Made by a program: the position numbers and the translations under genes
NCBI GenBank assembly: GCA_044356215.1
Contig: JBIKWQ010000029.1
Span: forward strand, 1 to 40,437
Direction: 5' to 3'
Length of the DNA: 40,437 nucleotides
Origin: Bdellovibrionota bacterium
GTDB lineage: Bacteria > Bdellovibrionota_C > UBA2361 > OMII01
Shown here: one piece after another, positions 32,186 through 40,437 of the stretch
Numbering within the stretch: the first letter of the stretch is position 1
Layout: the number at the start of each line of letters is the position of its first letter
The notes under the pieces: generated by a model
Databases searched by the model: none
What the model was told of the DNA's origin: nothing
What the model saw: only the letters and a program-made list of their open reading frames with translations

Positions 32186-32992
32186 CTACCACCTAAAAGC
32201 CCGGGATGGACGGTCTAGCTCTATATATCTAACACCGTCGTTATTTGTGAGATTTGCCATAATAATAGCGCCCTGCGGTATGCTTGCAGCCGGCCTGTCA
32301 AAACGAAAACGTGGTCTTCCATCGCTTCCAACCCTTTCGAGCTTACCCGTGGCGACAATTGACGCACCATCCGGCGATAATATCTTAATGCTAGAGACGC
32401 GGCCCTTTAGCTCCGGCCTAAGATCGACGTAAGCCTTCTGGTTAAACAAGCCTGGATGCCACTCCGATTTATTGGTGAATTCAAAGATCCGAGCCGAAGA
32501 TGGTAATAACGACGCCGGAGCCGTCGCAACGGCCGGCGCGCTCACTACTGGCTCTGGAGTTGTTACAACTGTGTCTTCAGGCGCCGCCGGCGCTAGTGGC
32601 ACCGGAGCCTGCGATGCTGGAGGCTGGCCTTCTGGCCCCTGTGGAACTGCCGGGGGCGCGGCTACCGGTGTCTGCGTTGGCTGGGGGGCCTGTGGTACGG
32701 CAACAGGACGAGGCGCCTCCCACACGACGGTAAGAGAGTTAACAAATTCAACGATCGCGTTGATTGCGGCTTGCGCGAATTCATGAATTTTTCCGAGGGC
32801 TCCACTCCCCAACGCTCCGGAACGATCTGATTCAGTTAACTGGAGCGCAACAGCCTTCATTTTTTCTAACTCATTAGCGCTTGAAATTAAATCGGTGGCG
32901 ACAGCCTGTGCTCCTCCCGATTGAACTCCTACCTGCGGTAGCAGGGCCTCTGTTTGTGATGGTACACTATTTAAATTTGACGATATCTCCAT
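32186..32992 (-). CDS. Hypothetical protein with Pro/Ala-rich linker and C-terminal beta domain
   Basis: GGGAGAG RBS; helical N-region, long Pro/Ala/Gln linker, globular C-terminus. Confidence 0.75.
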   Translation of the reverse strand: MEISSNLNSVPSQTEALLPQVGVQSGGAQAVATDLISSANELEKMKAVALQLTESDRSGALGSGALGKIHEFAQAAINAIVEFVNSLTVVWEAPRPVAVPQAPQPTQTPVAAPPAVPQGPEGQPPASQAPVPLAPAAPEDTVVTTPEPVVSAPAVATAPASLLPSSARIFEFTNKSEWHPGLFNQKAYVDLRPELKGRVSSIKILSPDGASIVATGKLERVGSDGRPRFRFDRPAASIPQGAIIMANLTNNDGVRYIELDRPSRAFRW

Positions 32993-33868: not shown

Positions 33869-34330
33869 CTAACGAGCCACGCAACCTAGGCCGCTCGGCA
33901 TCCGCATATCGCGACATCCGCGTCTACGTTCCTCAGGACTGCATTTTCTCTCGCTTGGGCTAAAGCCAGACGGGCAGCGATCCGCTTGCGGAGGTGGTGG
34001 TGATGGCCTGGTGTATTGCGGGGGGACGTTCTGCTGATTCCGGCGCTCTTGCTCAAGTCTACGACGCTCTGCCTCTAGACGCTCGCGCTCGCGCTGTAGC
34101 TCACGTTGCTCGCCACGATACGGGATACCTCCGTAATAACCACCACCATAGTAGGGGTTATTCCCGTAATATGGTGCGCCTCCGTAATAAGGAGCTGGAG
34201 GAGGTGGATTATACGTCGGCTGATTGTAGCCGTATGGGTCGTTTAAATTAGCGCAGCCTACTACTAATGACTGGAGTGAAAACAAAGAAATCAAACCGAC
34301 AAATCTCTTAATCATAAATCGCAATCTCAT
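33869..34330 (-). CDS. Hypothetical lipoprotein, Pro/Tyr/Gly-rich with four-Cys tail
   Basis: Lipobox VVG-C, PYYG repeats, charged coiled coil, C-terminal four-Cys segment. Confidence 0.65.
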   Translation of the reverse strand: MRLRFMIKRFVGLISLFSLQSLVVGCANLNDPYGYNQPTYNPPPPAPYYGGAPYYGNNPYYGGGYYGGIPYRGEQRELQRERERLEAERRRLEQERRNQQNVPPQYTRPSPPPPQADRCPSGFSPSERKCSPEERRRGCRDMRMPSGLGCVAR

Positions 34331-34380: not shown

Positions 34381-37002
34381 CTACCCCTCAGCGAGCACAA
34401 CATCCACCACAAATTTGCTCTGAGTTGTCTCTTCAACTGTTATCAGCTTAGTTCCGCCTTCAGCAACGCTACCAGCCCTCACCACATCGTCCAGCACCGT
34501 ACTAAGCGTCTCTAGGTCGCTCTGCTTGGCGCTGACCTTTAGCGAAGAGACTCCCCACCTCTGGCCCTTCTGGGCACTTGTCTTCATACCTCGGATAACA
34601 GAGAGAACCTCAGTAGCCGCGTCAAACGCCGAAGGGACTCCCTTGATACCCGCCACCTCACTTGGCGAAGGCCACTCTGTTGAATGCACCAACGCATCTC
34701 GCCCAGCCCCGGCGAAGCGCCATGACCAGACCTCTTCAGTCACATACGGCATAAATGGAGCGAATAATCTGATGAATGTCTTTAGACACCAGAAGAGCGC
34801 CGCTTGGGCTGACGCCCTACTCGCGGGATCCCCCTCGTTGTATGAGCGTCCCTTGACTAGCTCGACGTAGTGATCGCAGAAGTGCCAGAACTTCTCCTCA
34901 ACCGTTTGAAGAGCCTGCGCGTAATCAAACTTCTCAAATGACTCCGTCGCGCTCTTAACCACTTCAGCTAAAGTTGAAACCATCGCCCGATCAAGCGGAT
35001 GCTGAATCGCCCCTATTCCAGGTACTGGATCCGTCAACTGCATCAATACAAATCGGCTAGCGTTGAAGAGCTTAACCACTAGCTTACTACCGATCTTAAA
35101 TACGGCTGGGTCACAAGCTGTATCCGAACCTAAACGCGCTCTACCTGCCCAATAGCGGATTGCGTCAGAGGAGTACTCAGCTAAGAGACCTTCTGGCGTG
35201 ATCACATTTCCTTTGGACTTACTCATCTTCTTGCGATCTGGATCGAGCACCCACCCGGAGATGACTACGTTACGCCACGGGATCTCATTCTCATGCATCC
35301 ACGCCTTAACTATCGTGCTAAACGCCCACGTGCGGATAATCTCATGCGCCTGCGGCCTTATATCCATCGGGAAGAGCTTTTTGTGCTTTTCTGGATTAAG
35401 CACCCACTCACTCTGAATCTGCGGAGTTAGTGAAGATGTTGCCCAAGTATCCATTACATCAGGGTCGCCGGCGAAACCACCCGGCTGATTACGTTGAGAC
35501 TCGGTAAAACCAGGTGGAAGGTCACTCGAAGGATCTACCGGAAGCCTTGTCGATTCAGCGAAGATCGGCTTGTCGTATTGAATCTCTCCATCCTTGTTTA
35601 TTGGGTACCAAACTGGAAAAGGAACCCCGAAGAATCTCTGTCTACTAATACACCAGTCAGCATTTAGCCCCTCGACCCAATTCTCGTATCGCAGACGCAT
35701 ATGCTCAGGATACCAATTAATCTTGCGCCCTTGAGCCTTCAAGGCCTCCTTGTGCTGCATAGTTCTGATAAACCACTGCCTAGTTGTAACGAACTCAAGT
35801 GGCCTATCTCCCTTCTCATAGAACTTAACTGGATGCGATATGATCTTAGGTTCTCCCACTAAGGCAGCCCCTACTCCATCAACTGCGCTACCTGGCTGCG
35901 CAAGCATCTCAGCGATTACTTTCTTCGCCTTACGAAGATCCAGCCCGACCAACTTACTATAGTTTTGACGGGCCAAATCTGAGTTTACGGTGTCAAATGG
36001 AGCCTCTCCAAATGTTACATCGCGCATCGTTCCGTTAAAAGAGACCACCGGCTTAGCTGGCTTACCGGAGCGCTTCCACCACTCGACATCGTTAGCGTCA
36101 CCAAAGGTGCACACCATCAGTATTCCGGTACCCTTCTCGCGATCAACGTAATCAGCGGCCAAAATCGGCACTCTCGCGTGGAAAAGAGGAGTAATTGCAA
36201 ACTTCCCAAACAACGGCTGGTAGCGTGGGTCCTCAGGATGAGCCACTACAGCCATGCAAGCCGGTAATAATTCCGGCCTGGTAGTCGCGATCGTTAATGA
36301 ACCACCACCCTCAACACCGAATTGAATATCGTGAAACGCGCCTGGGATTTCGCGATCCTCAATCTCTGCCTGGGCCACCGCTGTCTTGAAATCAACATCC
36401 CACATCGTGGGAGCTTCGACACTGTAAACCTGCCCCTTCTGAGCCAGATCAAGAAATGAATGTTGCGACAAACGGGTACAGAGAGATCCCACAGTTGAGT
36501 AGGTCCTAGACCAATCGATCGACAAACCTAGCTGTTTCCAAAGATTCTCAAAGACAACCTCGTCCTCCTTTGTTAGCTGTTCGCATGCTTGAACGAAATT
36601 CCTACGAGATATCTCTTGAGCTGGTTTCTTCTCCTTACTATCGGGATTCACCTTTGTTGGTTTCCAATCAGGATCGTAAGGAACAGATGGATTACATCTA
36701 ATATTATAGACGTTCTGTACCCGTCTCTCGGTCGGTAGACCGTTATCATCCCATCCCATTGGGTAGGAGATATTTTTTCCGCGCATACGCTGGAATCGCG
36801 CAAGCACATCAGTCTGGGTGTAACTAAACACATGACCCAAGTGCAGAGAGCCTGAGACCGTCGGAGGTGGTGTGTCGATCACGAAGTTTTGTTCACGCGA
36901 CTTTGACGAATCCCAGCGGTACACTTGAGAACTCTCCCAGACATCCATCCAGCGCTTCTCAACACTTAAATGATCGTACTTTTCTGGAATCTCTTTTTTC
37001 AT
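34381..37002 (-). CDS. valS: Valine--tRNA ligase (type 2 subfamily)
   Basis: DTPPPTVSGSLHLGH, GWDDNGLPTER, ATTRPE, DWCISRQR, DVMDTW and KMSKS motifs. Confidence 0.95.
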   Translation of the reverse strand: MKKEIPEKYDHLSVEKRWMDVWESSQVYRWDSSKSREQNFVIDTPPPTVSGSLHLGHVFSYTQTDVLARFQRMRGKNISYPMGWDDNGLPTERRVQNVYNIRCNPSVPYDPDWKPTKVNPDSKEKKPAQEISRRNFVQACEQLTKEDEVVFENLWKQLGLSIDWSRTYSTVGSLCTRLSQHSFLDLAQKGQVYSVEAPTMWDVDFKTAVAQAEIEDREIPGAFHDIQFGVEGGGSLTIATTRPELLPACMAVVAHPEDPRYQPLFGKFAITPLFHARVPILAADYVDREKGTGILMVCTFGDANDVEWWKRSGKPAKPVVSFNGTMRDVTFGEAPFDTVNSDLARQNYSKLVGLDLRKAKKVIAEMLAQPGSAVDGVGAALVGEPKIISHPVKFYEKGDRPLEFVTTRQWFIRTMQHKEALKAQGRKINWYPEHMRLRYENWVEGLNADWCISRQRFFGVPFPVWYPINKDGEIQYDKPIFAESTRLPVDPSSDLPPGFTESQRNQPGGFAGDPDVMDTWATSSLTPQIQSEWVLNPEKHKKLFPMDIRPQAHEIIRTWAFSTIVKAWMHENEIPWRNVVISGWVLDPDRKKMSKSKGNVITPEGLLAEYSSDAIRYWAGRARLGSDTACDPAVFKIGSKLVVKLFNASRFVLMQLTDPVPGIGAIQHPLDRAMVSTLAEVVKSATESFEKFDYAQALQTVEEKFWHFCDHYVELVKGRSYNEGDPASRASAQAALFWCLKTFIRLFAPFMPYVTEEVWSWRFAGAGRDALVHSTEWPSPSEVAGIKGVPSAFDAATEVLSVIRGMKTSAQKGQRWGVSSLKVSAKQSDLETLSTVLDDVVRAGSVAEGGTKLITVEETTQSKFVVDVVLAEG

Positions 37003-37081
37003 TTCTCTTTAATCCTGGACTGAACCACCTCTGCTGAGTAGTTACCTTGGAACTATATACACTAGGTTCGCTTATAAAGCT

Positions 37082-37309
37082 TTAAATATCAAGTGGTTCT
37101 TCGTCTACGCAACAGCTACGTGGGGTTCTGATCCACTGATTGAGTCTCTCTGTAATTTCTTCTGGCGAATCTTGGGGGTGCTCCCTGACAAGCCGCTGCC
37201 GCACAAGCGCGAAACTCAGCTCCATTAATTCAAGAGCCTCGAGCAAACCTTGGGGATTGGGGAGGGTGTACCCTGTTGACGACACTCGGTTAGATTCCGC
37301 GGAAGACAT
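37082..37309 (-). CDS. Small helical protein resembling the MenA1 (Rv0078B)-type antitoxin
   Basis: Pattern Q-x-L-x2-AL-x3-E-x6-R-x-RL-x-RE-x-P-x5-EI-x6-W-x2-T; fills the gap between co-oriented genes. Confidence 0.55.
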   Translation of the reverse strand: MSSAESNRVSSTGYTLPNPQGLLEALELMELSFALVRQRLVREHPQDSPEEITERLNQWIRTPRSCCVDEEPLDI

Positions 37310-37356
37310 AGGGTTATTCTACCATCGAGGCTCCAGACGGTAAAGAAACCTATCGC

Positions 37357-38040
37357 TCAGAGCTTCCCCCGCTCCAAATCAAAATAGCTCGCGATCGTTG
37401 AGTAACTTAAGCCCCCTAATCTAGCGACCGGGTTTATCTCGCTTAACAACACCTTACCGTTGTTCCATGCACGCGAGTGAATGTGGCACCTTACTACTTC
37501 TCCAATCACCACTGTCGAGGCCCCAGCCTCAGCCTTACCGACCTGTGTCAGGCTCAGCAATCGGCACTCAAAATGAACGGGAGCTTCAGCTACCCGAGGA
37601 GGTGAAACAAGGTCCGAGCTTATCGGAGTCAAACCAGCGCGGTCTAATTCGCTCTCGCCGTAAGGAAGATCAACAGAGCAGAAGTTCATCGGTTCAGCCA
37701 TCCACGCGCCAACTGTGTTAACCACAAACTCCTTTGACCTCTCTATGTTAATCAACGTGTCCTTCTTTGTCCCATTTGGCTTAAAACCAATAGAAAACAT
37801 GACCGCCATCGGCTTGCTCGATACACCATTAAAAAAACTAAATGGCGCGACGTTGACCGTTCCATTTTCATTTACCGTTGAGACAAACGCGATCGGCCGA
37901 GGCACTATCGATCCGATTAGTATCTTGTAAGCCGCTGCTGCCTCTAGCTCTCTTGGATCTATGGAGATCATCTCGGATACAGGAGAAGTGACCTTGTCTC
38001 CGGGCCGCCAAGCTGGATTAGGTGGAGGTATTTGCTTCAT
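37357..38040 (-). CDS. Flavin reductase-like FMN-binding protein
   Basis: VPRPIAFVST, NVAPFSFFN, KDTLINI, EFVVN and RLGG.SY motifs. Confidence 0.9.
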   Translation of the reverse strand: MKQIPPPNPAWRPGDKVTSPVSEMISIDPRELEAAAAYKILIGSIVPRPIAFVSTVNENGTVNVAPFSFFNGVSSKPMAVMFSIGFKPNGTKKDTLINIERSKEFVVNTVGAWMAEPMNFCSVDLPYGESELDRAGLTPISSDLVSPPRVAEAPVHFECRLLSLTQVGKAEAGASTVVIGEVVRCHIHSRAWNNGKVLLSEINPVARLGGLSYSTIASYFDLERGKL

Positions 38041-38079
38041 AGCTACTCAATACCCGATCGATAACAGTGTGCCAAGTAA

Positions 38080-39030
38080 TTAGACCAACACAACCGAACT
38101 GTACCCTCCCTCGATAACAGCTCCACGCAGCGCCAATACATCCCTCACTTGAGAGCTAGACCTGACTAGATTATCGCCCTCTAGTACCGCCCACGGACCA
38201 ACGCATGCATGATCTTCTATTGTACACCGTGGTCCTATCCAGACCGGCCCGTCTATGACGGCCTTAGCTGATATTATAGCAGAGGGATCAATACATACCG
38301 ACGGAGACTGCCGTCTAAGATAGATCCGATTAAGCTCAAGGAGATCAGATTGATTTGTCAGGTCAATCCTCTCGTTAACAAACGAGCCAACCAAGAGAAA
38401 ACGGGGATCTCCGCACATTTCAGAGAAAACACCGGTTAACTCATACTCTCCCCTGGCTGAAGGTTTAAGCTGCTCTAGCTGTTTAAATACACCGGTATTA
38501 CAGATATAGAGTGGCAACGCCGTAATATCAGAGGTCCGCTCTTCCGGCTTTGGCTTCTCAATTAGACTCGAGATCCTACCGTCTGACTCTAAATTCACGA
38601 CTGAGCGCGATTGAAGCGAAACATTACGATCAACTCGCATAACCCCAAGTGAGACACTAGCCTCTCTATCGTTATGGGTTTTAATCAGTGAACAGATCTC
38701 ACTGGCCCTAACGATGCTATCGCACGCTGATATCAAGAAATCCCCAGAGATCAATCCCGCGCAAACCTTTAAAGCGTCCCCACTTCCCAGTGGTTTATCT
38801 TGCTGAAGAACTGTTACACCCCTCCGCCCTTTGAAATAATCTCTTAAATCGATATCGCGAGGAGAAGCGACGATAAGAAAATTAGTTATTCCAGCGGCCG
38901 CGATCTCATCGATTACCCGCTGGATCATAGGCAGCCCTAAAACTGGAACCATCGGCTTAGAGCGCCGCTCTGTAACTCTTTCGAGACGCGATCCCCTTCC
39001 TGCCGCCAATATCACCGCTGTATGAACCAT
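38080..39030 (-). CDS. Sugar-1-phosphate nucleotidyltransferase with C-terminal hexapeptide region
   Basis: AVILAAGRGSRL...KPM, Q..PLGSGDA, EKP and SARGEYELT motifs; short left-handed beta-helix tail. Confidence 0.88.
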   Translation of the reverse strand: MVHTAVILAAGRGSRLERVTERRSKPMVPVLGLPMIQRVIDEIAAAGITNFLIVASPRDIDLRDYFKGRRGVTVLQQDKPLGSGDALKVCAGLISGDFLISACDSIVRASEICSLIKTHNDREASVSLGVMRVDRNVSLQSRSVVNLESDGRISSLIEKPKPEERTSDITALPLYICNTGVFKQLEQLKPSARGEYELTGVFSEMCGDPRFLLVGSFVNERIDLTNQSDLLELNRIYLRRQSPSVCIDPSAIISAKAVIDGPVWIGPRCTIEDHACVGPWAVLEGDNLVRSSSQVRDVLALRGAVIEGGYSSVVLV

Positions 39031-40272
39031 TTAAATCCGCTCCAACTTAACTGACTCACTCAACTCACAGATGTGCATCGAATAGCTCTTGGCTAACTCA
39101 GGATGCCTATCTGTGTATCGTTGATGAACTTTTTCGATCACCCTATCTCGCTTTCGAGGGTCGATCAGGGCCAAACAACACCCCTGAAAACCACCGCCAC
39201 AAAAACGAGCTCCATAAACTCCATCGTTTTCGGCTAGAATCTCATAAAGCGAAATTAACGCCGGACTACCACTTTCGAAATTTACAATTGAGCTCTCTCC
39301 TGACTTAGTTACCAATTCGCCAAAACGCTGGATATCCCCAGCGGCCCAAGCCACCGTCCCGTCACTAACTCTCTCAGCCTCGCTGAAGAAATGCTTCGCT
39401 CTTCCATGTAGAGGTTTCGGCAAATCTGGGTTAAACCGCTGATAGACTTCAGTAGGCACGTCACCAAGACGGGGCTTAAGTGGCACTGGCAACTTGCCCA
39501 ACTCAAGCAACATGCGCGCCGCCTCATGACATTCACTGACCCGTTGATTAAATGGCGTCGCCGTTAGCTGTCTCGATAATCCTGAGTAAATAACCAAAAC
39601 CTCCCAAGGCACCGCCGCTGCCCCGAGTTTTAGCGCTCGAACAGAATTGCCGCGACAATCGATCACGGTCAATGCCCCCCGCTTGCTAAAAAGAATCACT
39701 GACTGATCAAGTACACCGTTATTAAGACCCAGATAGCCGTTCTCAATCCTAAGAACCAACTTCACTAACTCTTCTGATGATATCCGATAATCGTTTAGGT
39801 AAGCTAATGCTGTCAGGTACGCCAACGAAACCGATGCCGAAGAACTTAACCCGCCTATCGGCATCTCGCCGTAAACAACTCCGCTAAAGCCAGTATTGAT
39901 CACTCTGTCTGATTCGCGCAGAGCAACTATCGCCCCTCGCAAGTAGTTCCCCCACTCTCCGGTTACTTTTGCTCCGACCTGTCCCAGATCAACAGACAGG
40001 CGTTGCTGAAAGTTCTGACTGAAAACCGACACCGCTGAATTTTTAGAAGGCGTCGCTACTAGGCGAGTCGCGCGATCTATCGTAAATCCAGTAACGATAC
40101 CGCCTTGATGATCACTGTGTGCCCCTAAGGGACAGAGCCTAAGTGGAACTTCAACTGAAAACTGGTGAGCATCTTTCCGCTCCGCGAATTCGGCGCCCAA
40201 CCGCGCGCGCAGCGCGGCTGTCACGTCATCAGGTTGTTCTCTGGGGATTAAAGGGATCTCAGATAAGCTCAC
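39031..40272 (-). CDS. GHMP sugar kinase, galacturonokinase-like
   Basis: PLRLCPLGAHSDHQGG, GGLSSSAS, ENGYLGLNNGVLDQ and GARFCGGGFQGCC motifs. Confidence 0.85.
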   Translation of the reverse strand: MSLSEIPLIPREQPDDVTAALRARLGAEFAERKDAHQFSVEVPLRLCPLGAHSDHQGGIVTGFTIDRATRLVATPSKNSAVSVFSQNFQQRLSVDLGQVGAKVTGEWGNYLRGAIVALRESDRVINTGFSGVVYGEMPIGGLSSSASVSLAYLTALAYLNDYRISSEELVKLVLRIENGYLGLNNGVLDQSVILFSKRGALTVIDCRGNSVRALKLGAAAVPWEVLVIYSGLSRQLTATPFNQRVSECHEAARMLLELGKLPVPLKPRLGDVPTEVYQRFNPDLPKPLHGRAKHFFSEAERVSDGTVAWAAGDIQRFGELVTKSGESSIVNFESGSPALISLYEILAENDGVYGARFCGGGFQGCCLALIDPRKRDRVIEKVHQRYTDRHPELAKSYSMHICELSESVKLERI

Positions 40273-40437
40273 TATTGCCTCATCATCTGCTCATGAAACT
40301 ACTCGGCATGTTTTGCCTTAATAACGTTAGCTCCTATTAAGGGAAGGCCGGCAAAACCCCTCCCTACTGCGAAAGTGGATCTTGAGCTGCTCTTCGATTT
40401 TCGAGATGGGAAAAAATCCTCAATGTATCACAGGGGA

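Follow-up and report, generated by a model that had tools for sequence, protein, structure and literature searches.

Two abutting genes near the end of the window, which is the name used here for the whole stretch of 40,437 nucleotides of Bdellovibrionota DNA that was analysed, code for a sugar-1-kinase related to the galacturonokinase (GalAK, EC 2.7.1.44) of plants and for a sugar-1-phosphate nucleotidyltransferase. On balance we think that the pair would serve the import, 1-phosphorylation and nucleotide activation of D-galacturonate (GalA) and/or D-glucuronate (GlcA). The initial annotation had proposed a two-step salvage of GalA or GlcA into glycan precursors, and this proposal finds support, as an inference, in the phylogeny of the kinase, the conservation of the gene pair and the neighbouring genes. 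Plants (GalAK or GlcAK together with a UDP-sugar pyrophosphorylase) and lower animals (a GlcAK-transferase fusion) are already known to salvage uronates to nucleotide sugars. No description of a GalAK-type route in bacteria was found in the literature searched.

The kinase gene lies at 39031..40272 on the minus strand and codes for a GHMP sugar-1-kinase of 413 amino acids of the GalAK-like (PLGAHxDHQ) clade, with a GTG start and GAGG 6 nt upstream of it. Direct reading of its translation gives RLCPLGAHSDHQGG, ENGYLGLNNGVLDQ, SSIVNFESG...LYEIL, GVYGARFCGGGFQGCC and TPFNQR, and all the motifs that the initial annotation had quoted are thus correct. The plant GalAK motifs which it had named were right as well, since RICPLGAHIDHQGG and GVYGARFSGAGFRGCC are both present in V9QNR1 of Camellia sinensis (P0167 in our set), a protein named galacturonokinase by UniRef/NCBI. 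Pfam finds GHMP_kinases_N, GHMP_kinases_C and GalKase_gal_bdg in the window kinase. PF00288 (52.7 bits) and PF08544 (38 bits) both score above their cut-offs and PIGGLSSSAS is present, placing the protein in the GHMP kinase superfamily.

Within this superfamily the window kinase, as judged from its sequence, is not an ordinary galactokinase (GalK). The galactokinase model TIGR00131 gives it 168.9 against a cut-off of 226.65, which is near the 166.5 obtained for the Camellia protein, and the five control rows with GalK motifs score 286-376. The other four GalK equivalog models give 129-197 against cut-offs of 385-509, and the window kinase therefore stays below every GalK equivalog cut-off (TIGR00131 and the PRK models). 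A phmmer search of a library of 1.84 billion proteins linked the window kinase to the Camellia enzyme at 247 bits; with an E-value of 2.7e-68 the similarity of the two sequences is not due to chance. The best solved galactokinase, 1pie of Lactococcus lactis, reaches only 143 bits. A quick tree (80 rows, LG+G4) showed the same division; its GalK rows are those passing a GalK equivalog cut-off. Here the window kinase and the plant and algal GalAK rows fall in the PLGAHxDHQ clade, which is split from the GalK rows at SH-aLRT 100. The view that this is a homolog of plant galacturonokinase is thus borne out by bit scores, cut-offs and tree alike. JGI automatic names call many of the homologues galacturonokinase, and a search of the window genome with the window kinase as query (E<=1e-20) found no canonical GalK. 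The quick tree also draws plant GalAK nested inside the bacterial clade, yet the AU test keeps the tree in which the bacteria stand together (lnL difference 49.6, p 0.093; this group of bacterial rows was named only after the tree was seen), and the nesting was not accepted.

The plant enzyme (Arabidopsis At3g10700; here the Camellia sequence) belongs to the same GalK-derived clade and has PLGAHxDHQ, ENxYLGLxNGxLDQ and GARFxGxGFxGC in common with the window kinase. Canonical GalK (1PIE) is of the same fold family, and the window kinase keeps its Ser-rich ATP loop, the catalytic Asp of GxLDQ and the Arg that precedes the signature. The signature itself differs, as GEHTDYNGG and YNER of 1pie are aligned with GAHSDHQ and FNQR in the window kinase, which thus has Ala for the GalK Glu and DHQ for DY-N. 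Ala51, His55 and Gln56 are found in 274/274 clade members and in all 4 plant-like rows; the catalytic-site Asp189 is found in 273 of the 274 and Arg45 in 271. The reading of YNxR as FNQR, pointed out in the initial annotation, is real and is shared across the subclade of the window kinase. Across the clade this position holds Y in 159 members, F in 112 and L in 3 (F241 in the window kinase), and all four plant-like rows have Y. Of the 80 named loci, only L068 has Phe outside the window's subclade. We take this Tyr to be Y250 of Arabidopsis GalAK. A study of the Y250F change in that enzyme (said to be by Yang et al. 2009) reportedly found that the Tyr governs the galacto/gluco choice; the literature searched makes no mention of Y250F with galacturonic acid. 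A second conserved position also differs from the plant enzyme, Gln363 standing for Arg.

The transferase gene lies directly downstream, at 38080..39030 on the minus strand, and codes for 316 amino acids with an NTP_transferase domain and a short left-handed beta-helix (LbH) tail. PF00483 matches it at 93.3 bits against a gathering score of 21.2, Hexapep matches weakly (21.5 bits), and the N-terminal G-x-G-x-R-L loop reads LAAGRGSRLE at residues 8-17. Its best NCBIfam model is Arch_glmU (160 against a cut-off of 292.1), followed among others by rmlA_long (119 against 320) and galU (81 against 326.8), and it passes no named equivalog cut-off among RmlA, RmlA_long, GalU, GlmU, AglF, ManC and archaeal GlmU. 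The MurU model is another of the weak matches to the transferases. It was considered whether the transferase could be the missing GalU of the genus; this was rejected, as GalU scores above cut-off in 0/25 genus genomes, with or without the pair. The best solved relative is ST0452 of Sulfolobus tokodaii (PDB 5Z09/2GGO), a dual sugar-1-phosphate nucleotidylyltransferase; the alignment covers residues 5-306 and takes in the LbH tail. This match is of 81 bits only, and ST0452 has 401-409 amino acids whereas the window transferase ends at 316. ST0452 has acetyltransferase activity in its extended C-terminal part.

The initial annotation had the kinase stop abutting the transferase ATG at 39031/39030, and this is what is read directly at the junction (39028..39033, minus strand). 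GAG CGG ATT TAA is followed at once by ATG GTT, with the stop at 39033-39031 and the start at 39030-39028. GGAG stands 9 nt before the transferase ATG, and translational coupling of the two genes is likely from this arrangement. Abutting or overlapping genes are also seen in the closest metagenome contig, L106 (7242/7243), and in relatives.

The gene pair is conserved in the relatives of the window bacterium. The genus and order are represented by 41 genomes. Kinase genes occur in 11 of them and the transferase in exactly the same 11; with the window genome set aside, kinase and transferase stand side by side in 10/10. The conservation of the pair, which the initial annotation had wished to see checked, thus holds both as adjacency and as perfect co-occurrence. 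In genome contigs, relatives were found by an alignment-based scan, a single-protein scan having yielded none. The GalAK-like kinase spans at least eight phyla. Of 80 loci of other phyla, 7 are cut off too soon to be judged; in the 73 informative ones the transferase is directly downstream 33 times and missing there 40 times. Of the 33 downstream transferases, 21 have the long form of 316 aa and 12 a short form of about 250 aa that is unrelated to the long one, and both forms are likewise below all named equivalog cut-offs. Because two unrelated transferase forms occur downstream, the distribution suggests that the pairing with the kinase arose more than once.

In the relatives a third gene precedes the pair. 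An MFS transporter gene is immediately upstream of the kinase in 10/10 other kinase-bearing genomes and also in L106, the kinase of which is 78% identical to that of the window; in one locus (L092) its open frame, adjoining the kinase, is 429 aa long. TIGR00893, the D-galactonate/hexuronate anion-symporter model, is the best model for all 4 MFS proteins scanned, at 210-268 bits, which is below its cut-off of 395, and the next NCBIfam model gives the same four 116-156 bits. The TIGR00893 family carries aldonates, aldarates and other anions too. In the window, the DNA further upstream of the kinase is hidden by a dispersed repeat copy of about 100 bases (40340..40437, no strand assigned) that ends the contig. 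When the last 237 bases of the window were searched by blastn against the genome, the last 98 or so matched many contigs at 90-100% identity, several of them at contig ends. The 165 bases upstream of the window kinase have no homology to the 3' end of the MFS gene of L106. No MFS orthologue was found in the window genome by tblastn and genome search, only distant paralogues (best 34% identity over 92 aa). The smallest contig of this genome has 2534 bases, and a short repeat-flanked piece with an MFS gene could have been dropped from the assembly. Of the upstream neighbours of the relatives, S30AE and GT4 were not found in the window genome and only the TonB-dependent receptor was; since this receptor lies in the middle of contig C5, the synteny upstream of the kinase is not kept. 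Scans of 37000-40437 for promoters and terminators found about as many as in shuffled sequence (3 against 2.8 and 5 against 3.7), and a search of the last 338 bases of the window gave no inverted repeat.

These observations can be put together in a salvage route for GalA and/or GlcA, in which kinase and transferase genes would make up a single operon. In the relatives, the upstream MFS protein of the anion:cation-symporter type would import the substrate. The kinase would then phosphorylate, with ATP, a free hexuronic acid at C1 (the anomeric carbon); the likeliest substrates are D-galacturonate and/or D-glucuronate. Replacement of the GalK Glu beside the sugar C6-OH by Ala, and of DY-N by DHQ, may make room for the C6 carboxylate and remove repulsion. 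From an NTP and the uronate-1-phosphate the transferase would make an NDP-uronate, which glycosyltransferases would use; the nucleotide is guessed to be UTP or dTTP. The choice of nucleotide, the later use of the product and the roles given to single residues are inferences, and the substrate is assigned by analogy with the plant enzyme (37% identity by BLASTP to 43% by HMMER). An Ugd-like dehydrogenase gene stands beside a UXS/ArnA-like SDR gene in the window genome, which probably makes UDP-GlcA de novo; salvage would therefore be an accessory route and not the sole one. Several points count against the salvage reading. The transferase is not adjacent in 40 of the 73 informative loci of other phyla, the window kinase is without the plant insert of about 17 residues and differs at Phe241 and Gln363, and the MFS proteins score below the TIGR00893 cut-off with no orthologue found in the window genome. 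In addition, an RmlA-type transferase of the PF00483 family was inactive on GalA-1-phosphate (PMC9056299).

It is possible, though unlikely, that another acidic sugar is salvaged, such as mannuronate, guluronate or an N-acetylated hexosaminuronic acid, and the product may then be a GDP- or other NDP-sugar instead of a UDP-sugar. Cys358 and Pro240, together with Phe241 and Gln363, set the window clade apart from plant GalAK. The transferase, below all curated cut-offs, also resembles mannose-1-phosphate guanylyltransferases with LbH tails (about 54 bits), and the genome has TviB/TviC-like genes and makes UDP-GalNAcA-type sugars. However, the remaining sugar-contacting motifs are common to the window kinase and plant GalAK. 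Neighbours in other clades also point to GalA/GlcA, the pair being adjoined by the tagaturonate epimerase UxaE in L003, L006 and L019 and by altronate/galactarate dehydratase in L045, although the kinases at these loci with hexuronate-catabolism neighbours, some of them of Chloroflexota, are Tyr-type.

The same two steps acting on a neutral sugar (galactose, L-arabinose, xylose or GalNAc) are rather improbable. A bacterial salvage of xylose by GalK and a uridylyltransferase, as in Solitalea canadensis, has been described (PMC11267548). The window kinase is itself a member of the GalK family that all GalK equivalog models match at E 1e-37 to 1e-58, and the missing Tyr of YNxR could loosen C4 recognition. 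Against this, its scores fall below all GalK cut-offs just as those of plant GalAK do, the tree places it with the plant enzyme and away from GalK, every clade member has Ala for the Glu of GEHTDY, and the transporter that partners the pair in the relatives is by type an organic-anion symporter and not a sugar porter. That the kinase serves catabolism or sensing, with the adjoining transferase acting on another sugar phosphate, is very improbable: the catabolic neighbours at some Chloroflexota loci and the 40 of 73 loci that have no adjacent transferase speak for it, but the genes abut and co-occur perfectly across 41 genomes, UxaC was not found in the window genome (96% completeness), and a uronate-1-phosphate has no known use except nucleotide activation, as argued for GlcA-1-phosphate in one report (PMC3938481).

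The preferred salvage of GalA and/or GlcA would have close parallels in eukaryotes. The plant route is described as a kinase followed by a UDP-sugar pyrophosphorylase (USP/Sloppy), the same two-step logic (PMC8636097). The second enzyme of the window differs: it belongs to the NTP_transferase family (PF00483), has an LbH tail and is encoded next door, and the relatives of the window bacterium have, unlike the plant system, a dedicated importer gene. A Pfam search of the transferase (E<=0.01) gave no domain of the UDPGP family, to which USP belongs. Zebrafish DrGKUP joins a glucuronokinase to a short NTP_transferase of bacterial type for UDP-uronate salvage; the two are fused there with the transferase N-terminal, whereas the window has separate genes with the kinase first (PMC3938481). 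The window pair would follow a strategy that is established for other sugars. Bacteria reuse free fucose through Bacteroides Fkp, and free MurNAc through AmgK/MurU, by an anomeric kinase followed by an NTP_transferase, with other kinase families and other substrates than in the window pair.

A wider proposal is made only tentatively, and as a whole it is rather doubtful. A three-gene module of anion-type MFS importer, GalAK-like kinase and unclassified transferase may send scavenged hexuronates to surface glycans, the Phe241/Gln363 subclade of Oligoflexia-like bacteria, which includes the window kinase, may have switched or broadened its specificity (e.g. to GlcA or both epimers), and plant GalAK may be an offshoot of the bacterial family. 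The split between Tyr and Phe and between Arg and Gln in this family is a natural experiment on galacto/gluco discrimination. If the salvage reading is true, a whole unclassified subfamily of transferases would gain a function, and compact soluble bacterial enzyme pairs would be at hand for one-pot synthesis of UDP-GalA or UDP-GlcA. Many environmental bacteria would then put free GalA or GlcA, coming from pectin, glycosaminoglycans, exopolysaccharides or prey, back into glycans of their own and not just burn it.

Judged from its sequence, the kinase encoded at 39031-40272 on the minus strand is a galacturonokinase (GalAK)-like enzyme and not an ordinary galactokinase (GalK). The open reading frame codes for 413 aa from a GTG start, with GAGG 6 nt upstream, and contains all the kinase motifs quoted in the initial annotation. 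Pfam detects both GHMP domains, and the galactokinase signature domain is weak. All five NCBIfam galactokinase equivalogs match the kinase, each far under its cut-off. For TIGR00131 it scores 168.9 against a cut-off of 226.65, a shortfall like that of P0167 (166.5), a Camellia sinensis protein named galacturonokinase by UniRef and NCBI; five library proteins bearing RVNLIGxHTDY reach 286-376. With phmmer, run exhaustively against 1.84 billion representatives, 8702 matches were obtained at E≤1e-3. In the best 149 of these, which were scanned for signatures, 99 carry the R-x-C-P-L-G-A-H-x-D-H-Q type, the other 50 being mostly fragments or missed by the pattern, and classical GalK signatures begin only at about E 1e-45, among the weaker matches. 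The Camellia protein matches the kinase with 247 bits (E 2.7e-68), at 43% identity in the HMMER-aligned stretch and 37% across 441 BLASTP columns, and the best solved structure is Lactococcus GalK 1PIE (143 bits).

Phylogeny placed the kinase with the plant and algal GalAK proteins, in agreement with the homology proposed initially. A quick IQ-TREE run (LG+G4, SH-aLRT only) took in 80 rows. Besides the window kinase, these were 7 kinases of its genus or order, 16 belonging to named loci, 11 drawn from the 120 close homologues listed, every third full-length representative, 6 odd-signature, 5 GalK and 4 plant-like proteins, and P0265; all remaining fetched proteins were left out. A branch supported at 100 splits the PLGAHxDHQ clade, with its Camellia, Spirogloea and Micromonas rows, from four GalK rows; the fifth (P0258) joins the tree just beyond it. 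The window kinase falls in a 17-row subclade with its genus and order relatives, also supported at 100. At the base of the clade branches a small sister group (P0228, P0236 and P0250) that combines the GalK Glu with a GalAK-type DHQ (R-x-C-[IL]-L-G-E-H-V-D-H-Q), a signature intermediate between the two types. The tree draws the plant and algal rows nested among kinases of Latescibacterota, Planctomycetota and Gemmatimonadota. An AU test did not reject the tree in which the bacterial rows are held together (p 0.093), so a bacterial origin of plant GalAK is only a suggestion.

The residue comparison covered 301 sequences, namely the window kinase together with fetched proteins 340-480 aa in length and locus kinases no shorter than 340 aa; 274 of them are clade members. 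Ala51, His55 and Gln56 are invariant in the clade, where GalK has Glu, Tyr and Asn (1PIE alignment). Arg45 is kept in 271 members, Asp189 of GxLDQ in 273, and Asn242 and Arg244 likewise. Structural roles for these residues are inferred. The usual YNxR motif reads FNQR in the window kinase, as noted before. The Tyr position is Tyr in 159 members, Phe in 112 and Leu in 3; all four plant-like rows have Tyr (P0167 and P0239, with P0170 and P0177, which are unnamed but cluster with them). Of the 80 named loci, only those in the window's subclade (L001, L050, L071) and L068 have Phe. Across the clade Phe mostly co-occurs with Gln363, Cys358 and Pro240, and Tyr with Arg363, Ser358 and Asp or Gly240; the combination at positions 241 and 363 is Y/R in 130 members and F/Q in 80. 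FNQR is thus a fixed lineage trait and not a one-off. In Yang et al. 2009, plant GalAK reportedly accepts GlcA once the Tyr is changed to Phe and is inactivated when the Ala is changed to Glu.

As the initial annotation stated, the kinase stop abuts the next gene: its TAA directly precedes the ATG of the transferase (38080-39030, minus strand, 316 aa), which has GGAG 9 nt before it. The coupling is conserved. A survey of 41 genomes of the genus and order found the kinase (E≤1e-20) in 11 and the transferase (E≤1e-30) in exactly the same 11, and by coordinates the two are adjacent on one strand in all ten besides the window's own. The pair is an accessory module, because it is present in 9/24 other genomes of the genus and in 1/16 from the order's other families. 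Alignment-based scanning of a single genome from each species gave at least 585 kinase loci. The 80 that were kept represent Chloroflexota, Planctomycetota, Verrucomicrobiota, Latescibacterota, Armatimonadota, Gemmatimonadota, Calditrichota, KSB1, Lentisphaerota, Saccharimonadota and Bdellovibrionota; the closest named loci among the matches listed are, by title, Bdellovibrionota, 'delta proteobacterium' and Gemmatimonadota MAGs. A same-strand transferase lies directly 3' of the kinase in 33 of the 80. Orthologues of the window's 316-aa form account for 21 (125-241 bits; L043 is an overlapping-ORF call), and 12 are a form of about 250 aa that scores just 24-40 bits against it (L042 was added from the Pfam result). 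Two unrelated transferase subfamilies thus stand behind the same kinase family, which argues for a functional link. Forty loci have no adjacent transferase and show that the link is not universal; seven end too soon to tell.

In Pfam the transferase matches NTP_transferase (93 bits), with a short tail of hexapeptide repeats. It lies under every curated family cut-off, the best being the archaeal GlmU type (160 versus 292). Its nearest solved structure is the dual sugar-1-phosphate nucleotidylyltransferase ST0452 (81 bits, residues 5-306), followed by YngB, RmlA, GalU and mannose-1-P guanylyltransferases with a left-handed beta-helix tail. As RmlA, a ManC-like enzyme, two RfbF and GlmU have genes of their own in the genome, this is a sixth, unclassified transferase. 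Its stretch VLQQDKPLGSGDAL is similar to the Q...G motif with which GlmU and RmlA bind uracil or thymine, and UTP or dTTP as the nucleotide is a guess whose sole basis is this likeness. One RmlA-type enzyme does not take GalA-1-P, according to PMC9056299, so acceptance of GalA-1-P by the window transferase cannot be assumed.

The relatives add a third gene. An MFS_1 gene of about 420 aa ends at or overlaps the kinase start in 6/7 relatives' loci by ORF calls, and genome search, which recovered one that the calls had missed, places it next to the kinase in all ten other kinase-bearing genomes; it also occurs, in two pieces, in one 76%-complete genome in which no kinase was detected. The closest long relative, metagenome contig L106 (kinase 78% identical), reads GT4 glycosyltransferase, S30AE, MFS, kinase, abutting transferase, flavin reductase and ValRS. 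Its right-hand side has the same order as the window, where a flavin-reductase-like gene (37357-38040) and valyl-tRNA synthetase (34381-37002) lie downstream of the pair. Further along are minus-strand ORFs of 153 aa (33869-34330; lipoprotein-like N-terminus, Tyr/Gly/Pro repeats and an Arg/Glu-rich stretch in translation) and 268 aa (32186-32992; long Pro/Ala-rich middle). In the genus relatives L092, L094 and L097, genes for a TonB-dependent receptor and a GT4 glycosyltransferase precede the MFS-kinase-transferase unit by a few genes, a small S30AE-like gene lying between; the window genome carries its receptor orthologue at another site, mid-contig on C5. TIGR00893, the D-galactonate-type anion:cation symporter family, is the best NCBIfam model for all four transporters tested (210-268 bits, the next model 116-156), with its cut-off of 395 not reached. 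ExuT, the hexuronate carrier, belongs to this family too. A rival reading is that the substrate of the kinase and transferase is another acidic sugar.

No MFS orthologue was found in the window's genome, and the 165 b left ahead of the kinase start share no homology with the 3' end of the L106 MFS gene. The strain's transporter may be lost, or lie in unassembled DNA. The final ~98 b (40340-40437) are a copy of a dispersed repeat of ~100 bases with about 170 blastn matches across the genome; the assembly break therefore falls exactly where the kinase's upstream neighbour would lie. The window is one entire contig (40,437 b) of the assembly (3.24 Mb, 49.5% G+C). The repeat occurs on a large proportion of its 131 contigs, repeatedly at contig ends, and for this reason is probably the cause of many breaks, including the one here. 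It is often paired with an adjacent, more diverged inverted partner. The window's RpoA shares 75-79% identity with proteins labelled Oligoflexia, Deltaproteobacteria or SAR324 bacterium.

The genome, at 96% completeness, yielded no UxaC and no second GalK-like gene at E≤1e-20. De novo UDP-GlcA is probably available, because a Ugd-like dehydrogenase (TuaD model, 532 bits) is encoded, followed by a UXS/ArnA-like SDR; a TviB/TviC-like pair is also present. GalU exceeds the TIGR01099 cut-off in 0/25 genomes of the genus versus 11/16 from the order's other families, and the Ugd-like gene is present here although no GalU reaches that cut-off.

It is very probable that kinase and transferase form a sugar-salvage pair. 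In the complete salvage operon, which on balance is the likelier case, import of a hexuronate would be followed by its C1 phosphorylation through the GalAK-like kinase and by conversion to an NDP-uronate through the coupled transferase. The same two-step logic is outlined for plant GalAK with USP (PMC8636097) and for a zebrafish fusion of glucuronokinase (GlcAK) and transferase (PMC3938481); GlcAK is described as a different GHMP family (PMC2823444). A neutral sugar as substrate is a second rival: GalK-based xylose salvage exists in bacteria, as summarised in PMC11267548; against this rival, the relatives' transporters match an anion family best. The weakest rival is a non-biosynthetic role of the kinase. 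In other members of the family, UxaE tagaturonate epimerase adjoins the pair in three Chloroflexota loci and an altronate/galactarate dehydratase follows it in L045. Ten loci, mostly from Anaerolineae with two from Saccharimonadota and Lentisphaerota, carry an NAD-epimerase gene close to the kinase, directly upstream in six and within three genes in the rest, and many also have PAPS-synthesis and sulfotransferase genes. In Anaerolineae loci lacking an adjacent transferase (L002, L005, L007, L011, L021, L031, L036, L037, L040 and others) the kinase sits amid NAD-epimerase, bifunctional ATP-sulfurylase/APS-kinase and sulfotransferase genes. These neighbours hint at a link to sulfated glycan synthesis. 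The salvage operon is preferred as the most economical explanation.

The kinase assignment itself is no novelty, since the JGI pipeline names many homologues galacturonokinase. No bacterial GalAK-type pathway was found described in the literature searched, where the galacturonokinase papers all concern plants by title. What is new is the bacterial module, which joins a distinct unclassified transferase and an anion-type importer to a Phe/Gln kinase subclade.
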